21,926 nucleotides of DNA from a virus (lineage: Duplodnaviria; Heunggongvirae; Uroviricota; Caudoviricetes): IMG/VR virus record IMGVR_UViG_2585427776_000012; one strand, 5' to 3'. This document shows positions 4,381 to 20,880 of the stretch, one piece after another. The translations under genes were made by a program, and so were the position numbers. Each line of letters starts with the position of its first letter. The first letter of the stretch is position 1. A model generated the notes under the pieces. It was not told the origin of the DNA and made no database searches. It saw only the letters and a program-made list of their open reading frames with translations.

Positions 4381-4946
4381 TATCGCGTCCTCAACAATGA
4401 ATTTTGTGATGCGGTGCCTGGTGCCTCCAGGTGACGTTAACCAGTTAACAATTAACGCCGGATACAGAGAATCCACCCATAACACTGTTTTTGGTTTTAA
4501 CTGTTCCGCGTGCGCTCAGCCGCATTCACCACATCACAAAATTCACTTTAAAAAGGGCGGCAGAGCAGTCACGGAGTAAAACTGATACCGCCAAACGTCA
4601 CCAGAAAATTGATAACAGAGGGCGTTGCAGCGGGGTTGTCACTTAAGCGTATGGTCAACCTGACAACCCGGTGTCCTCAACGGGGGAAGGAATAACCCCG
4701 CCATACTTACCGCCGCGCCATTTCGCGGATTGCCACAACCGGAAGCGCACGGTCGACGAAAATTTAACGACAGGCTATCTATGAACCAGCTACCTCGCCG
4801 TGCGCTTTCGCGTTATGGTCTGACTTTTCAGGGAAATATCCTTTCAGTAAACTGTCAGTGCCGGATTCTTATCCGTGTCCGGCGCACGACCACACGCTGT
4901 CACGAGAGGTCTCCATTCTCAACCAGTAACCTCAATGGAGGATAAA

Positions 4947-11488: not shown

Positions 11489-11569
11489 TTTTATATTGGC
11501 GAGGTGACGGGAGTTAAGTAGAATTGCTGCGGGTGCTTGAGGCTATCTGCCTCAGGCATGAACACCAAA

Positions 11570-11650
11570 GGCAGATAGAGAAAAGCCCCAGTTAATATTA
11601 CGCGTCCTGCAAGACGCTTAACATTAATCTGAGGCTCAATCTATGAACGG
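11570..11650 (-). ncRNA. sok: Predicted Sok-like antisense RNA (position inferred, boundaries approximate)
   Basis: In hok/sok loci the antisense RNA is transcribed opposite to the hok leader across the mok translation start. Placed by analogy; promoter not confidently identified. Confidence 0.3.
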
Positions 11651-11699
11651 CAAATCTAGGTTAGCCTCTTACGTGCCGAAAGGCAAGGAGAAGCAGGCT

Positions 11700-11855
11700 A
11701 TGAAGCAGCAAAAGGCGATGTTAATCGCCCTGATCGTCATCTGTTTAACCGTCATAGTGACGGCACTGGTAACGAGGAAAGACCTCTGCGAGGTACGAAT
11801 CCGAACCGGCCAGACGGAGGTCGCTGTCTTCACAGTTTACGAACCTGAGGAGTAA
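11700..11855 (+). CDS. hok: Hok-family type I toxin (in-frame upstream extension from 11643 = mok-like leader ORF)
   Basis: Product MKQQKAMLIALIVICLTVIVTALVTRKDLCEVRIRTGQTEVAVFTVYEPEE matches the Hok/Gef family as recalled. Upstream leader GGGTGCTTGAGGCTATCTGCCTCAGG resembles the conserved hok mRNA 5' end. Intrinsic terminator downstream. Confidence 0.85.
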   Translation: MKQQKAMLIALIVICLTVIVTALVTRKDLCEVRIRTGQTEVAVFTVYEPEE

Positions 11856-13355: not shown

Positions 13356-13730
13356 ATGCTCATAGATTTGGTTTTACCTTACCCGCCGACGGTGAACACT
13401 TACTGGCGACGCCGTGGCAGCACATATTTTGTATCAAAAGCCGGGGAGCGTTATCGCCGGGCAGTGGCGCTTATTGTTCGCCAGCAGCGGCTGAAATTAA
13501 GCCTGTCCGGAAGGCTGGCGATAAAGGTGATTGCAGAGCCACCGGATAAGCGTCGTCGCGACCTGGACAATATCCTGAAAGCACCGCTGGATGCGCTGAC
13601 GCATGCGGGAGTGTTAATGGACGATGAGCAGTTTGATGAAATCAATATCGTTCGTGGTCAGCCAGTATCTGGTGGACGTCTGGGGGTGAAGATTTACCCC
13701 ATAATGCTTGAAGGGCAGGTCAAAAAATGA
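13356..13730 (+). CDS. rusA: RusA-family Holliday junction resolvase
   Basis: 124 aa. Motifs YWRRRG and DKRRRDLDNILKAPLDALTHAGVLMDDEQ match RusA (DRRRRDLDN...DALT) as recalled. Typical position just upstream of Q. Confidence 0.85.
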   Translation: MLIDLVLPYPPTVNTYWRRRGSTYFVSKAGERYRRAVALIVRQQRLKLSLSGRLAIKVIAEPPDKRRRDLDNILKAPLDALTHAGVLMDDEQFDEINIVRGQPVSGGRLGVKIYPIMLEGQVKK

Positions 13731-14548
13731 AACTGGAAGATTTACCGAAATACTACTCCCCAAAATCCCCCGGCCTGACTGATGCATCGGCCTCAACGTC
13801 GAAAGATGCGCTGAGTATCACTGATGTGATGGCCGCGCAGGGCATGACACAGAATCGGGCTGAGATGGGGTTTTCTGCGTTCCTTGGTAAAATGGGCATT
13901 AGTATGAATGACAGAGAGCGGGCAACAGAATTGCTGACAGAATATGCACTCAGTCGGTGTGATCGCGTGGCGGCGTTAAGAAAACTCCCGGCAGAAATAA
14001 AACCGGCAGTGATGCGTATTATGGCTTCGTATGCGTTTGAAGATTATGCCCGTAGCGCGGCGAGCAAAAAACAGTGCCCCTGCTGTCACGGAAAAAAATT
14101 TATTGAAAGCGAGGTTTTTACAAACAAGGTCCAGTATCCGGATGGTAAGCCGCCGGTATGGGCAAAGTGTACGAAAGGTGTGTATCCGTCTTACTGGGAA
14201 GAATGGAAAAAAGTCAGGGAGGTGGTAAAAGTTGCCTGTCCGGAGTGTGGCGGAAAGGGTGAGGTTTCCACCGCCTGTAAGGATTGCCGTGGGCGTGGTG
14301 TCGCCATTCATCGTGAAGAGTCGGTAAAACGTGGTATGCCTGTTATCAGAGACTGCCAGCGTTGTGGTGGTCGTGGCTGTGAAAGACTACCATCAACGGA
14401 GGCATTTAATGCCATATGCAAAGTGACGAGTGCTATCACGCTTGATACGTGGAAAAAATCAGTGAAACGCTTTTACGATACGTTGGTGGTTCGGTTTGAC
14501 ATTGAAGAGGCATGGGCGGAGCGGCAGTTAAAGAGGGTAACGCGATAG
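13727..14548 (+). CDS. Late-gene antiterminator Q (long, zinc-binding Q type)
   Basis: Start overlaps the rusA stop (ATGA). Several CxxC pairs (CPCCHG, CPECGG, CKDCRG, CQRCGG). Followed by a pR'-like promoter and short-transcript terminator. Confidence 0.75.
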   Translation: MKLEDLPKYYSPKSPGLTDASASTSKDALSITDVMAAQGMTQNRAEMGFSAFLGKMGISMNDRERATELLTEYALSRCDRVAALRKLPAEIKPAVMRIMASYAFEDYARSAASKKQCPCCHGKKFIESEVFTNKVQYPDGKPPVWAKCTKGVYPSYWEEWKKVREVVKVACPECGGKGEVSTACKDCRGRGVAIHREESVKRGMPVIRDCQRCGGRGCERLPSTEAFNAICKVTSAITLDTWKKSVKRFYDTLVVRFDIEEAWAERQLKRVTR

Positions 14549-14553
14549 TGTTG

Positions 14554-14581
14554 TTGATTTTTCCCGAATCTGTGGTAAATT
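14554..14581 (+). promoter_or_regulatory. pR'-like late promoter (Q utilisation region)
   Basis: TTGATT, 16-bp spacer, TAAATT immediately downstream of Q; an intrinsic terminator lies about 50 nt downstream, as for lambdoid pR'/tR'. Confidence 0.45.
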
Positions 14582-14628
14582 TGCTCTAACGATGGGCGTT
14601 TTATGCCTGACGTTAGAAGATTTTTTAC

Positions 14629-14653
14629 ACCCCGCCGCCTGGCGGGTTTTTTA
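14629..14653 (+). terminator. tR'-like intrinsic terminator
   Basis: CCCGCC-GCCT-GGCGGG hairpin followed by TTTTTT. Confidence 0.7.
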
Positions 14654-15122: not shown

Positions 15123-16172
15123 ATGCTTAATACTGTAAAAATATCCAGTTGTGAGTTAATCAACGCCGACTGCCTGGAATTTATCCGGTCGTTACCCGAA
15201 AATTCTGTTGACCTGATAGTCACGGACCCGCCGTACTTTAAAGTGAAGCCTGAGGGCTGGGATAACCAGTGGAAGGGCGACGATGATTACCTGAAGTGGC
15301 TGGACCAGTGTCTGGCGCAGTTCTGGCGGGTGCTGAAACCTGCCGGAAGTCTTTACCTGTTCTGTGGTCATCGCCGGGCATCTGATATCGAAATCATGAT
15401 GCGTGAACGCTTCAGTGTGCTGAACCATATTATCTGGGCGAAGCCGTCCGGACGCTGGAACGGATGCAACAAGGAAAGCCTGCGGGCGTATTCCCCCGCC
15501 ACAGAGCGCATTCTGTTCGCGGAACATTATCAGGGGCCGTATCGTCCGAAAGATGCCGGGTATGCGGCGAAGGGCAGTGCACTGAAACAGCATGTGATGG
15601 CCCCGCTGATTTCTTACTTTCGTGATGCGCGCGCGGCCCTGGGGATAACGGCAAAACAGATTGCAGATGCCACAGGAAAGAAAAACATGGTGTCGCACTG
15701 GTTCAGTGCCAGTCAGTGGCAGCTACCGAACGAAAGCGATTATCTGAAATTACAGTCGCTGTTTGCCCGGGTGGCAGAAGAGAAACATCAGCGCGGTGAA
15801 CTGGAAAAGCCCCACCACCAGCTGGTGGATACGTATACGTCACTGAACCGGCAGTATGTGGAGCTGCAGAGTGAATATAAGCATCTGCGGCGGTATTTTG
15901 GTGTGACGGCGCAGGTGCCGTACACGGATGTGTGGACACATAAACCGGTGCAGTTCTATCCCGGGAAACATCCGTGCGAAAAACCGGCAGAAATGCTGCA
16001 GCAGATAATCAGCGCAAGCAGTCGTCCGGGTGACCTGGTTGCAGATTTTTTTATGGGCTCAGGTTCAACGGTAAAAGCGGCACTGGCGCTCGGGCGTCGT
16101 GCGATTGGCGTTGAACTGGAGACCGGACGTTTTGAGCAGACAGTCAGGGAAGTTCAGGATTTAATCGTTTGA
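15123..16172 (+). CDS. Orphan DNA methyltransferase (beta-class amino-methyltransferase, N6-adenine or N4-cytosine)
   Basis: Motif IV VTDPPY near the N-terminus and motif I DFFMGSGST near the C-terminus (beta-class order). No adjacent restriction endonuclease. Same position as the methyltransferase of Stx-type phages. Confidence 0.85.
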   Translation: MLNTVKISSCELINADCLEFIRSLPENSVDLIVTDPPYFKVKPEGWDNQWKGDDDYLKWLDQCLAQFWRVLKPAGSLYLFCGHRRASDIEIMMRERFSVLNHIIWAKPSGRWNGCNKESLRAYSPATERILFAEHYQGPYRPKDAGYAAKGSALKQHVMAPLISYFRDARAALGITAKQIADATGKKNMVSHWFSASQWQLPNESDYLKLQSLFARVAEEKHQRGELEKPHHQLVDTYTSLNRQYVELQSEYKHLRRYFGVTAQVPYTDVWTHKPVQFYPGKHPCEKPAEMLQQIISASSRPGDLVADFFMGSGSTVKAALALGRRAIGVELETGRFEQTVREVQDLIV

Positions 16173-16221
16173 AACGGATGAGATTGCAGAATTAATTACG
16201 CACCATTATTATTCTGCTCCC

Positions 16222-16297
16222 GGCCCTTTAGCTCAGTGGTGAGAGCGAGCGACTCATAATCGCCAGGTCGCTGGTTCAAATCCAGCAAGGGCCACCA
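16222..16297 (+). tRNA. tRNA-Ile2 (anticodon CAT, lysidine type; a Met reading is not excluded by sequence alone)
   Basis: Cloverleaf by eye: acceptor GGCCCTT/AAGGGCC, D-arm GCTC...GAGC, anticodon loop CTCATAA, T-loop TTCAAAT, encoded CCA. Closely resembles E. coli ileX as recalled. Confidence 0.8.
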
Positions 16298-16304
16298 TCA
16301 CATA

Positions 16305-16381
16305 CCGCCATTAGCTCATCAGGAAAGAGCGCCAGCCTTCGAAGCTGGTTGCGCGGAGTTCGGGTCCCCGAAGGCGGTCCA
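16305..16381 (+). tRNA. tRNA-Arg (anticodon read as TCG; one mismatch each in acceptor and T stems)
   Basis: Anticodon stem CCAGC/GCTGG with loop CTTCGAA, D-arm GCTC/GAGC, encoded CCA. Anticodon read by eye and should be confirmed with a tRNA scanner. Confidence 0.6.
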
Positions 16382-16394
16382 TTATCTGTATCCT

Positions 16395-16471
16395 GCGTTG
16401 TTAGCTCAGCCGGACAGAGCAATTGCCTTCTAAGCAATCGGTCACTGGTTCGAATCCAGTACAACGCGCCA
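16395..16471 (+). tRNA. tRNA-Arg (anticodon TCT, reads the rare AGA codon)
   Basis: Acceptor GCGTTGT/ACAACGC, anticodon stem ATTGC/GCAAT with loop CTTCTAA, T-loop TTCGAAT, discriminator G, encoded CCA. Confidence 0.8.
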
Positions 16472-16513
16472 CACTTATTTTCCCTGGCTCGCTTTTGCGG
16501 GCTTTTTTTTAAA

Positions 16514-16732
16514 TGTCTCACAATTCAGGCGGTTGACTGTTGTCTGGTTTGCGGGGAGTTTGTTAAAAGAAACTGGCATGGTGAATCCCCCTGTGCGGAG
16601 GGGCAATCAGCGAGTAGGTATATGGGATAATCGCGGATTCAGGTGCTGGTACTGAATTCACCGGGAGGCACCCGGCACCATGCAATGGCACATAGCGCCA
16701 CTCTCCAGCCCCTCTCCGGAGGGGCTTTTCTG
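16514..16732 (+). repeat. Structured non-coding element, copy 1 (candidate prophage sRNA gene with intrinsic terminator)
   Basis: Shares with copy 2: CTCACAATTCAG, TTGAC box, CATGGTGAAT + CCCCCT..GCGGAGGGG hairpin, TGAA-TCACCGGGAGGCACCCGGCACCATG, and terminator AGCCCCTCTCCGGAGGGGCTTTT (16707-16729). Central segment differs. No credible ORF. Confidence 0.55.
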
Positions 16733-16920
16733 TGCCGGATACATCACAGTTTCTGGAACCTTAGGTACTACAGTATCAGTCAGGGTGCTATATTTTCAGA
16801 TGTGATGAAAGCCTGTCAGCAGGCAGGGCGTATCGGAAATGACCCAGTAGAGAAAACGTTGACTCAGATACCGGTGCTGAGTTACCGGGAAACCGGCATC
16901 ACATGACCGCTATCCTTCCA

Positions 16921-16948
16921 GGCCCATCCGCTCCGGTGGGCCTTTTTA
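16921..16948 (+). terminator. Intrinsic terminator between the two repeat copies
   Basis: GGCCCATCCGCTCCGGTGGGCC hairpin followed by TTTTT. Ends a short unit that starts at an extended -10 (TGCTATATT, about 16780). Confidence 0.65.
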
Positions 16949-16982
16949 CTGCAGAAAACAGGTTCCCCGTTAAATGCTATGT

Positions 16983-17217
16983 TGCTCACAATTCAGTAAG
17001 TTGACAGTTGCCTGTCAGACTGGGCATTTGTTAAAAAAATTTCGCATGGTGAATCCCCCTGAGCGGAGGGGCGACTGGTGACGGTATAATCTCTGATTAT
17101 CAAAACGAGAATGACGCGGGTTTAGTGGCACCGGGCTGAACTCACCGGGAGGCACCCGGCACCATGTGCATGATGATACAGATACGCGGCTTTAGCCCCT
17201 CTCCGGAGGGGCTTTCT
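16983..17217 (+). repeat. Structured non-coding element, copy 2 (paralog of 16514-16732)
   Basis: Same conserved blocks as copy 1, TATAAT at 17085-17090, terminator AGCCCCTCTCCGGAGGGGCTTT at 17193-17214. A further GCCCGCG...CGCGGGC hairpin follows at 17232-17257. Confidence 0.55.
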
Positions 17218-17446
17218 TATGGACAAAAAAAGCCCGCGCTGGGAGACGCGGGCGGCAAGGAATAAACAATAAAACGTGAAGTAATATTTCAGCTGGCGAA
17301 TAATACCCCATAGTAATCACTCTGCGCAACTGCGCGGTCTTTTTCGAATTGCGGGCTGTAGTCTCCCTTCTGCCATTGTCCTGTAACTTCCGGACTTCAG
17401 CCTGCTCCTTATCTGACTCACAACATTATCCCGCCCGGGAGGATTC

Positions 17447-17707
17447 ATGGCATTTAAACACTATGACGTGGTCAGGGCGGCATCGCCGTCAGACCTTGCG
17501 AAACGACTGACACAAAAACTGAAGGAGGGCTGGCAGCCGTTTGGTAGTCCGGTGGCCATAACCCCTTATACCCTGATGCAGGCGATTGCAGCAGAAGGTG
17601 ATGTGGTCGTCAGTGGTGCAACTGAGCCGGAGTGGTACTACGTCATCGTACTGGCCGGGCATCCGGTGTGGAGGTGGACAAGGTTGCAGAGGCTTTCGGA
17701 AAACTGA
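17447..17707 (+). CDS. Hypothetical protein (86 aa), probably 3'-truncated at a deletion junction
   Basis: Strong RBS GGGAGGA before the ATG at 17447. The ORF runs into the out-of-frame start of H-homologous sequence, so its C-terminus is probably not native. Confidence 0.5.
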   Translation: MAFKHYDVVRAASPSDLAKRLTQKLKEGWQPFGSPVAITPYTLMQAIAAEGDVVVSGATEPEWYYVIVLAGHPVWRWTRLQRLSEN

Positions 17708-19578
17708 CCACTGACCCGACGTCGGGGCTGATTGCGATGGCGAAGCAGTTCCATAACGTGACGGCGGAGCAGATTGCGTATGTTGCTCAGTTGCAGCGTT
17801 CCGGCGATGAAACCGGGGCATTGCAGGCGGCGAACGAGGCCGCAACGAAAGGGTTTGATGACCAGACCCGCCGCCTGAAAGAGAACATGGGCACGCTGGA
17901 GACCTGGGCAGACAGGACAGCGCGGGCATTCAAATCCATGTGGGATGCGGTGCTGGATATTGGTCGTCCTGATACCGCGCAGGAGATGCTGATTAAGGCA
18001 GAGGCTGCGTTTAAGAAAGCAGACGACATCTGGAATCTGCGCAAGGATGATTATTTTGTTAACGATGAAGCGCGGGCGCGTTACTGGGATGATCGTGAAA
18101 AGGCCCGTCTTGCGCTTGAAGCCGCCCGAAAGAAGGCTGAGCAGCAGACTCAACAGGACAAAAATGCGCAGCAGCAGAGCGATACCGAAGCGTCACGGCT
18201 GAAATATACCGAAGAGGCGCAGAAGGCTTACGAACGGCTGCAGACGCCGCTGGAGAAATATACCGCCCGTCAGGAAGAACTGAACAAGGCACTGAAAGAC
18301 GGGAAAATCCTGCAGGCGGATTACAACACGCTGATGGCGGCGGCGAAAAAGGATTATGAAGCGACGCTGAAAAAGCCGAAACAGTCCGGCGTGAAGGTGT
18401 CTGCGGGCGATCGTCAGGAAGACAGTGCTCATGCTGCCCTGCTGACGCTTCAGGCAGAACTCCGGACGCTGGAGAAGCATGCCGGAGCGAATGAGAAAAT
18501 CAGCCAGCAGCGCCGGGATTTGTGGAAGGCGGAGAGTCAGTTCGCGGTACTGGAGGAGGCGGCGCAACGTCGCCAGCTGTCTGCACAGGAGAAATCCCTG
18601 CTGGCGCATAAAGATGAGACGCTGGAGTACAAACGCCAGCTGGCTGCACTTGGCGACAAGGTTACGTATCAGGAGCGCCTGAACGCGCTGGCGCAGCAGG
18701 CGGATAAATTCGCACAGCAGCAACGGGCAAAACGGGCCGCCATTGATGCGAAAAGCCGGGGGCTGACTGACCGGCAGGCAGAACGGGAAGCCACGGAACA
18801 GCGCCTGAAGGAACAGTATGGCGATAATCCGCTGGCGCTGAATAACGTCATGTCAGAGCAGAAAAAGACCTGGGCGGCTGAAGACCTGCTTCGCGGGAAC
18901 TGGATGGCAGGCCTCAGGTCCGGCTGGAGTGAGTGGGAAGAGAGTGCCACGGACAGTATGTCGCAGGTTAAAAACGCGGCCACGCAGACCTTTGATGGTA
19001 TTGCACAGAATATGGCGGCGATGCTGACCGGCAGTGAACAGAACTGGCGCAGCTTCACCCGTTCCGTGCTGTCCATGATGACAGAAATTCTGCTTAAGCA
19101 GGCAATGGTGGGGATTGTCGGGAGTATCGGCAGCGCTATTGGCGGGGCTGTTGGTGGCGGCGCATCCGCGTCAGGCGGTACAGCCATTCAGGCCGCTGCG
19201 GCGAAATTCCATTTTGCAACCGGAGGATTTACGGGAACCGGCGGCAAATATGAGCCAGCGGGGATTGTCCACCGCGGGGAGTTTGTCTTCACGAAGGAGG
19301 CAACCAGCCGGATTGGTGTCGGGAACCTGTACCGCCTGATGCGGGGCTATGCGGAAGGGGGGTATGTGGGTGCTGCCGGAAGTCCGGCGCAGATGCGGCG
19401 GGCCGAAGGCATTAATTTTAATCAGAACAATCACGTGGTGATTCAGAACGACGGTATCAACGGACAGGCCGGGCCGCAGCTGATGAAAGCGGTGTATGAG
19501 ATGGCCCGTAAAGGTGCGCAGGATGAGCTCCGGCTGCAGTTGCGTGATGGCGGTCTGTTATCGGGGAGCGGGCGATGA
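17660..19578 (+). pseudogene. Tail tape-measure protein H, 5'-truncated fragment (C-terminal ~640 codons)
   Basis: No start codon or RBS at the 5' end of the homology. C-terminal region FHFATGGFTGTGGKYEPAGIVHRGEFVFTKEATSRIGVGNLYRLMRGYAEGGYVG...NNHVVIQNDG...LRDGGLLSGSGR is lambda-H-like as recalled. Confidence 0.8.
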
Positions 19579-19904: not shown

Positions 19905-20641
19905 TGCAGGATATTCACGAAGAAAGTCTGAACGAGTCGGTTAAGTCAGAGCAGTCACCGCGGGTGGTACTCTGGGAAATCGACCTGACGGTGCAGGGCG
20001 GTGAGCGGTATTTTTTCTGCAATGAGCTGAATGAAAAAGGGGAGCCGGTGACCTGGCAGGGGCGTGAATATCAGGCGTACCCGATTGAGGGGAGTGGCTT
20101 TGAGATGAACGGGAAGGGCAGCAGTGCCAGACCATCGCTGACGGTGTCCAATCTGTTTGGTCTGGTCACCGGGATGGCGGAAGACCTGCAGAGTCTGGTG
20201 GGGGCCACGGTGGTCCGCCGCCGGGTGTATGCCCGTTTTCTGGATGCGGTGAATTTCGTTGCGGGCAATCCGGAGGCGGACCCGGAGCAGGAGCTGAGTG
20301 ACCGCTGGGTGGTGGAGCAGATGTCGCAGCTGACAGCCATGACGGCCTCGTTTGTGCTGGCCACACCGACCGAGACGGACGGGGCGCTGTTTCCCGGTCG
20401 TATCATGCTGGCGAACACCTGTATGTGGACCTACCGCTCTGATGAGTGTGGTTACACGGGCGGGGCTGTGGCGGATGAGTTCGATAAACCCACCACGGAT
20501 ATCCGTAAGGACAGATGCAGCAAGTGCATGCGCGGGTGTGAACTGCGCAGGAATGTCGGCAATTACGTCCGTTACCGGAAAATGTTACCTGGTTATCGCC
20601 GGAAGGGGAGTTTCAGAAGTGGAACGGCACAGCCTGGGTGA
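19904..20641 (+). CDS. Minor tail protein L (C-terminal ~25 aa replaced by out-of-frame tfa-derived sequence)
   Basis: 245 aa; strong similarity to lambda gpL through ...[16 protein letters not shown], after which the sequence diverges (recombination junction about 20565-20578). Confidence 0.8.
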
Positions 20642-20880
20642 AGGATACGGAAGCAGAAAAACTGTTCCGGATCCGGGAGGCGGAAGAAACAAAAAACAAC
20701 CTGATGCAGGTAGCCAGTGAGCATATTGCGCCGCTTCAGGATGCTGCAGATCTGGAAATTGCAACGGAGGAAGAAACCTCATTGCTGGAAGCCTGGAAAA
20801 AGTATCGGGTGTTGCTGAACCGTGTTGATACATCAACTGCACCTGATATTGAGTGGCCTACGAACCCTGTCAGGGAGTAA
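20578..20880 (+). pseudogene. Tail fibre assembly protein (Tfa) 3' fragment fused out of frame to the end of L
   Basis: Frame-1 translation [94 protein letters not shown] is the typical Tfa C-terminal region. No N-terminus or own start; the K, I, J and stf genes are absent. Confidence 0.75.

Follow-up and report, generated by a model that had tools for sequence, protein, structure and literature searches.

A tandem array of three STnc100-family small RNA genes in the late region of an Escherichia coli lambdoid prophage

The window analysed here, a 21,926-nucleotide (nt) stretch of an Escherichia coli lambdoid prophage (IMG/VR record IMGVR_UViG_2585427776_000012; all coordinates are window positions), carries an array of three tandem copies, two clear and one diverged, of the small RNA (sRNA) element STnc100 (Rfam RF02076). 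The array lies in the late (moron) region of the prophage, the location that characterizes STnc100. The feature is real but already known, STnc100 being a catalogued and experimentally detected family of Hfq-binding sRNAs in lambdoid and Shiga toxin prophages, and our additions are modest: the tandem arrangement, a third copy below the Rfam threshold, the reassortment of modules and a copy in the dicB leader, with no new kind of element among them. The reading that we favour, at a probability of about 0.85, is that the array consists of three independently transcribed STnc100 sRNA genes at the moron site, which in Stx phages holds stxAB, paired with a convergent short sRNA gene and acting through Hfq-dependent base pairing.

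Two copies match STnc100 over its full length

An initial annotation of the window had described two paralogous elements of ~220 bp with conserved blocks at both ends, a CATGGTG/CACCATG long-range complement, divergent cores and identical terminators, and all of these features are present. The 5′ blocks (16517–16604 and 16985–17072) show 80% identity over 88 nt and the 3′ blocks (16652–16682 and 17136–17166) 97% identity over 31 nt; the cores are divergent, and the overall identity of the two copies is 72%. The long-range complement joins CATGGTG at 16577–16583 to CACCATG at 16676–16682 in copy 1, and 17045–17051 to 17160–17166 in copy 2. The 22-nt terminators (16707–16728 and 17194–17215) are identical, and both were recovered as intrinsic terminators by a terminator scan.

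A scan with Rfam, proposed as a check by the same annotation, identifies both elements as STnc100, well beyond chance, far above the gathering threshold of 47 bits and over all 206 positions of the model (copy 1, 16547–16737, 136.3 bits, E = 2e-30; copy 2, 17015–17224, 165.4 bits, E = 9e-38; model positions 1–206 in each case). As a positive control, the same analysis of the Sakai prophage Sp5 detects both its STnc100 element (208 bits) and its convergent AsxR RNA (88 bits). Copy 1 is of the EcOnc05 type and shares 99.2% identity with the EcOnc05 locus of Sakai Sp4; the EcOnc05 northern probe is the exact reverse complement of 16608–16642, within the copy 1 core, and the EcOnc06 probe matches this core with one base difference. 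Copy 2 has 78% identity to EcOnc27 of Sakai Sp5, from which it differs in its combination of core and tail.

These homologs are expressed. The EcOnc RNAs were found by ultraviolet crosslinking to Hfq and described as ‘convergent sRNAs' in eight Sakai prophages, at the moron site (Tree 2014; PMC4104026), with crosslinking (Hfq-CRAC) peaks and northern detection for EcOnc05, EcOnc06 and EcOnc27 (PMC4104026). EcOnc27 is the sRNA103 of strains EDL933 and 86-24, whose overexpression raises fimZ and espA transcripts (PMC7873438), an effect that is probably indirect. In EDL933, 11 STnc100 copies are annotated; each has transcriptome reads, and one (STnc100_4) was confirmed by northern blot. STnc100 RNA has also been found in outer-membrane vesicles from Shiga toxin-producing E. 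coli. The homologs accumulate in uninduced lysogens and crosslink to Hfq, which some of them need for stability. The expectation that prophage sRNA genes occupy this moron/stx position is thus upheld, since both elements are full-length STnc100 matches with near-identical homologs that are Hfq-bound and visible on northern blots. The window shares with STnc100, EcOnc05, EcOnc06, EcOnc27 and sRNA103 the full-length above-threshold matches, the fold and the layout with a convergent partner, as well as the position after tRNAs or stx and before esterase and lysis genes. However, Sp4 and Sp5 carry one gene each, in contrast to the three in tandem here.

The region had also been said to hold no credible open reading frame (ORF), and our survey agrees. 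None of its 17 ORFs of at least 30 amino acids has a plausible context; the longest (87 amino acids, GTG start) passes through a terminator, and four representative ORFs, the longest included, have no Pfam match. Protein coding was rejected on these grounds and because the ORFs that start from the conserved CACCAUG cross terminators and vary between variants.

A diverged third paralog lies between the two clear copies

The segment between copies 1 and 2 had been annotated as a third short promoter–terminator unit. A promoter and a terminator are indeed there, but the unit is not of a separate kind: it is a diverged STnc100 paralog (predicted RNA of ~149 nt, 16800–16948, plus strand), composed of a four-helix domain (16800–16904), a tail (16905–16919) and a terminator (16920–16948). 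It is too diverged for the Rfam threshold (30.1 bits, E = 2.4e-4), and it scores 61.6 bits with R1, a covariance model that we made from an alignment of 33 representative 5′ domains. The clear copies score 117.8 (copy 1) and 102 bits (copy 2) with R1. The middle copy is 57–59% identical to copies 1 and 2 yet retains every helix with different letters, through compensatory changes: P1 is AUGUGAUG/CAUCACAU, P2 is GCCUG/CAGGC, P4 is GACUCAG/CUGAGUU and P5 is CCGG-GAAA-CCGG. Its minimum free energy (MFE) fold has the same architecture as those of copies 1 and 2 (z = −3.5). A variant with 86% identity to the middle copy is present in three other loci (L143, L202 and L213), and among the sequences analysed this diverged paralog occurs only inside tandem arrays.

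A four-helix domain supported by covariation

The 5′ domain is built of four helices: P1, an 8-bp closing helix (GCAUGGUG/CACCAUGC); P2, a CCCC/GGGG hairpin; P4, an 8-bp hairpin (GGAUUCAG/CUGAAUUC); and P5 (CCGGG-AGGCA-CCCGG), directly stacked on P1. A variable insert sits between P2 and P4. In copy 1 the domain spans 16576–16683 and is followed by a single-stranded tail (16684–16706) and the terminator (16707–16732); in copy 2 the corresponding parts are 17044–17167, 17168–17193 and 17194–17220. Folded alone, each of the three copies takes the consensus architecture (z from −1.9 to −3.5), and the features that mark the STnc100 fold, namely the closing helix, the CCCC/GGGG, GGGUUCAG/CUGAACUC and CCGGG-AGGCA-CCCGG hairpins and the terminator, are found in the MFE folds of all three.

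Homologs were collected from IMG/VR viral contigs with the 16-mer anchor GCATGGTGAATCCNCC (15 specified bases), which yielded 105 unique flanked sequences; the 33 representatives aligned over the 5′ domain included the middle copy and PasD, a related RNA discussed below. A scan of 596 gigabases of genome contigs with the same anchor returned, among the matches listed, unrelated sequences (mostly Streptomyces and metagenome-assembled genomes), consistent with chance, since fifteen specified bases are too few for a collection of this size. In the MAFFT alignment, 96.6% of cells are paired and eight pairs are changed on both sides, whereas none of 500 shuffles was as good and slid partners pair at 48% or less. 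Because MAFFT placed the 3′ strand of PasD wrongly and shifted the middle copy, pair counts were redone on a model-guided alignment. A search with R1 found 131 copies in 100 sequences, and the aligned homologs (55 distinct rows) are 97.4% paired with changes on both sides in 19 of 26 pairs; this alignment is fitted to the model and therefore biased towards structure, hence the MAFFT values given alongside. The anchor fixes the 5′ strand of P1, so that covariation in P1 comes from copies that R1 recovered independently of the anchor, namely the middle copy, the extra copies of contig L130 and the dicB-leader copy.

Covariation supports P1 and P4. It bears directly on the reading in which the conserved blocks are mere remnants of promoters and terminators, or scars of recombination, that do nothing at the RNA level. 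The identical terminators, the relation of the locus to Sp4 (a 470-bp insert, see below), which points to recombination at terminators, and the mosaic nature of lambdoid late regions all speak for such scars; but P1 and P4 are internal helices, neither promoters nor terminators, and their compensatory changes, together with a fold that is kept in the diverged middle paralog and homologs that are expressed, leave this account a negligible likelihood. It is largely refuted by the covariation. The covariation analysis proposed in the initial annotation, for which conserved blocks devoid of conserved pairing were to count against sRNA genes, thus finds the pairing conserved.

Predicted promoters, starts and transcript sizes

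Each copy is predicted to have its own sigma-70 promoter, with the first base of the closing helix as the transcription start. In 51 unique upstream regions, two elements are conserved at a spacing of 17–18 nt, the hexamer TTGYCT and a TG-extended T(T)AAAA, and the −10 ends six bases ahead of the G of GCAUGGUG. The sequence between these elements, and that just ahead of the start, is variable. In copy 1, a conserved upstream block (TAAATGTCTCACAATTCAGGCGGTTGAC, 16509–16545) ends in the predicted −35 TTGTCT (16540–16545), and the extended −10 (TG-T-TAAAAG, 16561–16569) stands at this fixed distance from the G that begins GCAUGGUG. In copy 2, the corresponding block (16975–17013) ends in the predicted −35 TTGCCT (17008–17013) and is followed by TG-T-TAAAAA (17029–17037). 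The middle copy has a candidate extended −10, TG-C-TATATT (16786–16794), with the same offset to the closing helix. All of these elements are on the plus strand. The predicted start at the first base of P1 follows from this fixed promoter spacing and from the 5′ ends of PasD1 and PasD2 determined by RNA sequencing, which fall exactly on that base. The upstream TTGACA/TTGACT was rejected as the main −35, being 25 nt from the conserved −10, a distance that TTGYCT, 7 nt further downstream, brings into the usual range.

The predicted transcripts would extend from 16576 to ~16732 (157 nt), from 16800 to ~16948 (149 nt) and from 17044 to ~17220 (177 nt). The 90–150 nt expected in the initial annotation is therefore too short, also in view of the 177–247 nt seen for homologs on northern blots: ~222 nt for EcOnc05, ~235/247 nt for EcOnc27, ~177 nt for EcOnc06 and ~187 nt for EcOnc13 (Tree 2014 Table S2; PMC4104026). 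The EcOnc06 and EcOnc13 sizes agree with the predicted lengths. As the EcOnc05 and EcOnc27 sizes exceed them, a second, upstream start or the processing of read-through RNA is possible for the longer species. The block TAAATnnCTCACAATTCAGnnnGTTGAC, upstream of the predicted promoters (16509–16538 and 16975–17006), is likewise conserved, and a start within it would match the 222–247-nt species of the homologs. The conserved CTCACAAT block does not recur as an enriched motif in the rest of the prophage (7 matches, 5.8 expected).

Relationship to PasD and to the short late transcript

A 2026 preprint proposed a common ancestry for STnc100 and the PasD1 and PasD2 RNAs of enteropathogenic E. coli (EPEC) E2348/69, of which EcOnc13 is a homolog. 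PasD scores 38–41 bits with the Rfam STnc100 model, and R1 recovers PasD1 and PasD2 with 49.8 bits, its matches beginning precisely where the published 5′ ends lie, so that the 5′ domain and the start are shared. PasD resembles the array copies in its start (GCAUGGUGAAUCC), in P1, P2 and P4, in promoter geometry, in its position upstream of esterase or holin genes and in its dependence on Hfq. It differs by lacking the P5 hairpin and by having another terminator and a longer tail: its long 3′ tail carries the seed UGUGAG and leads into a GGCUGCGCA..GCGCAGCC terminator, a combination absent here, and the array combines tail types 0 and 1 with terminator type 0, in contrast to tail type 2 and terminator type 1 of PasD.

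The lambda 6S RNA and StxS, short pR′ transcripts that end at tR′, are likewise short terminated late-region RNAs that are read through under Q. However, they lie directly after Q, and their candidate counterpart in the window (14555–14652) is 2 kb upstream of the array and unrelated to it in sequence and structure.

The convergent unit and the AgvB and AsxR RNAs

Copy 2 is abutted by a short sRNA-like unit of the EcOnc08 type on the minus strand (17225–17293, ~69 nt), which ends in a terminator (GCCCGCGUCUCCCAGCGCGGGC-U7) recovered by the terminator scan and has a fold z of −3.0. It is 93% identical to the Sakai Sp4 flank that bears the EcOnc08 Hfq-CRAC peak and resembles a candidate from RIL-seq (ligation and sequencing of interacting RNAs) in EPEC. 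Its putative promoter, TTGCGC-N18-TATTAT (17300–17329, minus strand), was read from the sequence, as was a promoter-like TTGCGC-N17-TAAAAT at the same relative place in the Sp5 AsxR locus.

This unit fills the slot that AgvB or AsxR occupies in other prophages, where these RNAs (RF02702 and RF02703), 51–60 nt long with a conserved 42-nt 3′ region, are the opposite-strand dyad partners of STnc100-type RNAs at the same moron-site locus. AgvB and AsxR had been mentioned as possible relatives of the elements described here, and the array RNAs could be imagined as anti-sRNAs (sponges) of this kind that titrate core-genome sRNAs: the locus type is the same, the variable regions could mimic target sites, and some STnc100 members might act in this way. 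This lead did not hold. The AgvB and AsxR models have no match at E ≤ 1 on either strand of 16100–17500, although AsxR is readily found in Sp5, and on this ground identity with either RNA was rejected. Moreover, the copies lie on the plus strand, have roughly three times the length at their predicted 149–177 nt and lack the conserved 42-nt 3′ region; only the unit at 17225–17293 has the AgvB/AsxR geometry, and its sequence is unrelated to either. A sponge role for the array RNAs is accordingly very unlikely.

Recurrence of the array and reassortment of its modules

The single copy of Sakai Sp4 corresponds to copy 1 joined, at its terminator, to the flank that follows copy 2 here, so that the window resembles Sp4 with a 470-bp insert between two identical terminators. 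The identity of the terminators and this relation to Sp4 point to terminators as sites of recombination. Among the loci analysed, three-copy arrays were found at 10 loci besides the window (11 sequences in all) and a four-copy array at one. The four domain copies are in IMG/VR contig L130 (2326–3350, minus strand); IMG/VR contigs with three copies are L133, L142, L143, L152, L165, L199, L202, L210 and L213.

Cores and 3′ tails reassort freely among STnc100 and PasD homologs. The 93 unique elements from IMG/VR loci L127–L245 comprise 12 core types and 16 tail types in 29 combinations; eight different tails accompany one of the cores, and five different cores share one of the tails. Some hybrids join an STnc100-type domain to a PasD-type terminator.

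A copy of the domain in the dicB leader

A related four-helix domain lies on the minus strand between DicF and the dicB start codon (4409–4534; R1, 46.4 bits), ~25 nt ahead of the latter. Its Rfam STnc100 score of 38.7 bits is below threshold, but its MFE fold is that of the array copies, and it shows compensatory changes in P1, P4 and P5. The same copy is present in the Qin prophage of K-12 MG1655 (L246, 1456–1581, plus strand; R1, 41.9 bits). Among the papers searched, none of the eight that mention STnc100 takes up dicB. Given its presence in the dicB leader, where it lacks a terminator of its own, the domain could have a role unrelated to base pairing.

One form that such a role might take is the autonomous functional RNA module, a protein-binding or tertiary fold rather than a passive scaffold. 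A fixed chassis onto which recombination swaps cores and tails, its use in tandem arrays and its use in cis in the dicB leader, K-12 included, all fit this proposal, which we consider doubtful; if true, STnc100/PasD would be a cassette-like, modular sRNA system whose members share a partner.

Another form, which we hold to be unlikely, is a domain that acts chiefly in cis within long transcripts, for instance as a signal for processing, stability or read-through in Q-dependent late RNA or in the dicB leader, with terminators that insulate late genes from Q-independent transcription and sRNAs that are by-products. The array does form part of the late transcription unit, with Q, pR′ and tR′ upstream of it, and has five plus-strand terminators in 860 bp, where 1.8 would be expected on the two strands combined; the domain stands before dicB, in the window as in K-12, without a terminator; and its invariant unpaired residues (AAU, GCGG and AGGCA) suggest tertiary or protein contact. 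However, each array copy has a conserved promoter that would start exactly at P1 as well as its own terminator, homologs accumulate as discrete Hfq-bound RNAs without prophage induction, and in the window the genes to be insulated are deleted while the array is still intact.

Proposed mode of action

Three independently transcribed sRNA genes are the preferred reading. Each gene consists of a predicted sigma-70 promoter (TTGYCT, 17–18 nt and a TG-extended T(T)AAAA), the four-helix 5′ domain with its variable insert, a short, variable single-stranded tail and a terminator, and the RNAs would be made from their own promoters in the lysogen. By analogy with homologs, they would bind Hfq and act in trans by base pairing with host or prophage transcripts through their variable single-stranded parts. 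The targets of PasD share a motif complementary to its 3′ tail, and the RIL-seq-derived seed of PasD, the only one mapped in the wider family, is located in this tail, immediately ahead of the terminator, and not in the core; by this analogy, the terminator-proximal tail would be the likeliest seed here. The initial annotation had suggested that the variable cores could specify different targets; among homologs, both cores and tails vary, so that its interpretation, otherwise essentially correct apart from the AgvB/AsxR lead, may have placed too much emphasis on the core. The tails here are short and partly C/U-rich (copy 1 has CUCUCC and the middle copy UAUCCUUCC), a composition that might suit pairing with ribosome-binding sites. 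The helix that begins at +1 probably shields the RNA from 5′-end-dependent decay. On induction, Q-modified polymerase from pR′ (about 14555–14583) would read through the whole array, the pR′-like and tR′-like elements following immediately after Q in the same orientation.

Several observations weigh against this proposal. Evidence of expression comes from homologs rather than from this strain, copy 2 or middle variants, and no validated direct target has been reported for any STnc100 member, the effects of sRNA103 being those of overexpression. The EcOnc05 and EcOnc27 northern species are longer than the 157–177 nt predicted for their counterparts here, and copies 1 and 2 have short U-tails with interruptions (UUUUCU and UUCUUAU), suboptimal for Hfq binding or termination. 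Finally, the dicB leader carries the same 5′ domain with no terminator of its own.

The STnc100 family is widespread and adjoins stx2, and a machine-learning study of 2025 ranked single-base variants within it with the top predictors of haemolytic uraemic syndrome. For the window itself the practical value is one of annotation, RefSeq marking only a probably spurious pseudogene on the wrong strand at this place. The fold, the prediction of promoters and starts and the core–tail reassortment provide a basis for designing probes, mutants and target searches.

Prophage context and distribution

On the plus strand, the order of elements in the late region is Q, pR′ with a short leader, a small ORF, a methylase gene, three tRNAs, the array and the start of the esterase gene. 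The antiterminator Q gene (PF03589) occupies 13727–14548 and is directly followed by a lambda-like pR′ and a short terminated leader (about 14555–14652), the expected short pR′ transcript and counterpart of lambda 6S RNA or StxS; the candidate pR′ (about 14555–14583) consists of TTGATT, a spacer and TAAATT, and a strong terminator, CCCGCCGCCTGGCGGG-T6, lies ~50 nt later. The small ORF and an N6/N4 DNA methylase gene come between this leader and the tRNAs tRNA-Ile(CAU), tRNA-Arg and tRNA-Arg (ileZ-argN-argO, 16222–16471), found by ARAGORN and Rfam. ARAGORN calls the first of them (16222–16297) tRNA-Met (anticodon CAT), whereas RefSeq calls an identical gene tRNA-Ile (ileZ), presumably read as Ile once modified with lysidine. 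An intrinsic terminator (16486–16510) closes the tRNA cluster after tRNA-argO. Past the array, a plus-strand hairpin with a T-run (17322–17345), recovered by the terminator scan and conserved in Sp4 and Sp5, precedes the DUF1737/esterase start at 17447.

Sakai Sp4 and Sp5 have the same gene order as the window across the late region. In Sp5, these tRNAs and this kind of element flank stx2AB, the STnc100-family element following stx2B after 75 nt, which bears out the description of this place as the stx-equivalent locus. The region was said to end at a next gene; a gene does follow, but it is an esterase gene so truncated that just its DUF1737 N-terminus is left. A deletion has reduced the prophage to a remnant, whose homology to that of ML35 breaks off near 17664 and picks up again within the tail tape-measure gene; from this jump out of the DUF1737/esterase gene, the lysis, terminase and head genes are missing. 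The junction (17664–18187) breaks inside the DUF1737/esterase gene and leaves the sRNA array intact.

The 961 bases of 16480–17440 have 100% identity to many complete E. coli chromosomes, for example those of ML35 and VR50. Of 5426 complete E. coli genomes, 2870 match at least part of this segment, with up to 14 places in a single genome, and 353 contain 80% or more of it in one place; parts of the array also match 353 phage records, mostly of Shiga toxin (Stx)-converting phages. RefSeq annotates no non-coding RNA at L001 17087–17212 (window 16566–16691, minus strand) or at L004 1801–2199, where a ‘hypothetical protein' pseudogene or coding sequence, probably spurious, runs antisense to the STnc100/PasD RNAs. 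Other above-threshold Rfam matches in the window are DicF (4555–4606, minus strand, 77 bits), the sok antitoxin RNA (11531–11705, plus strand, 113 bits) and IS009 (20639–20837, plus strand, 225 bits), the last near the gene for minor tail protein L.

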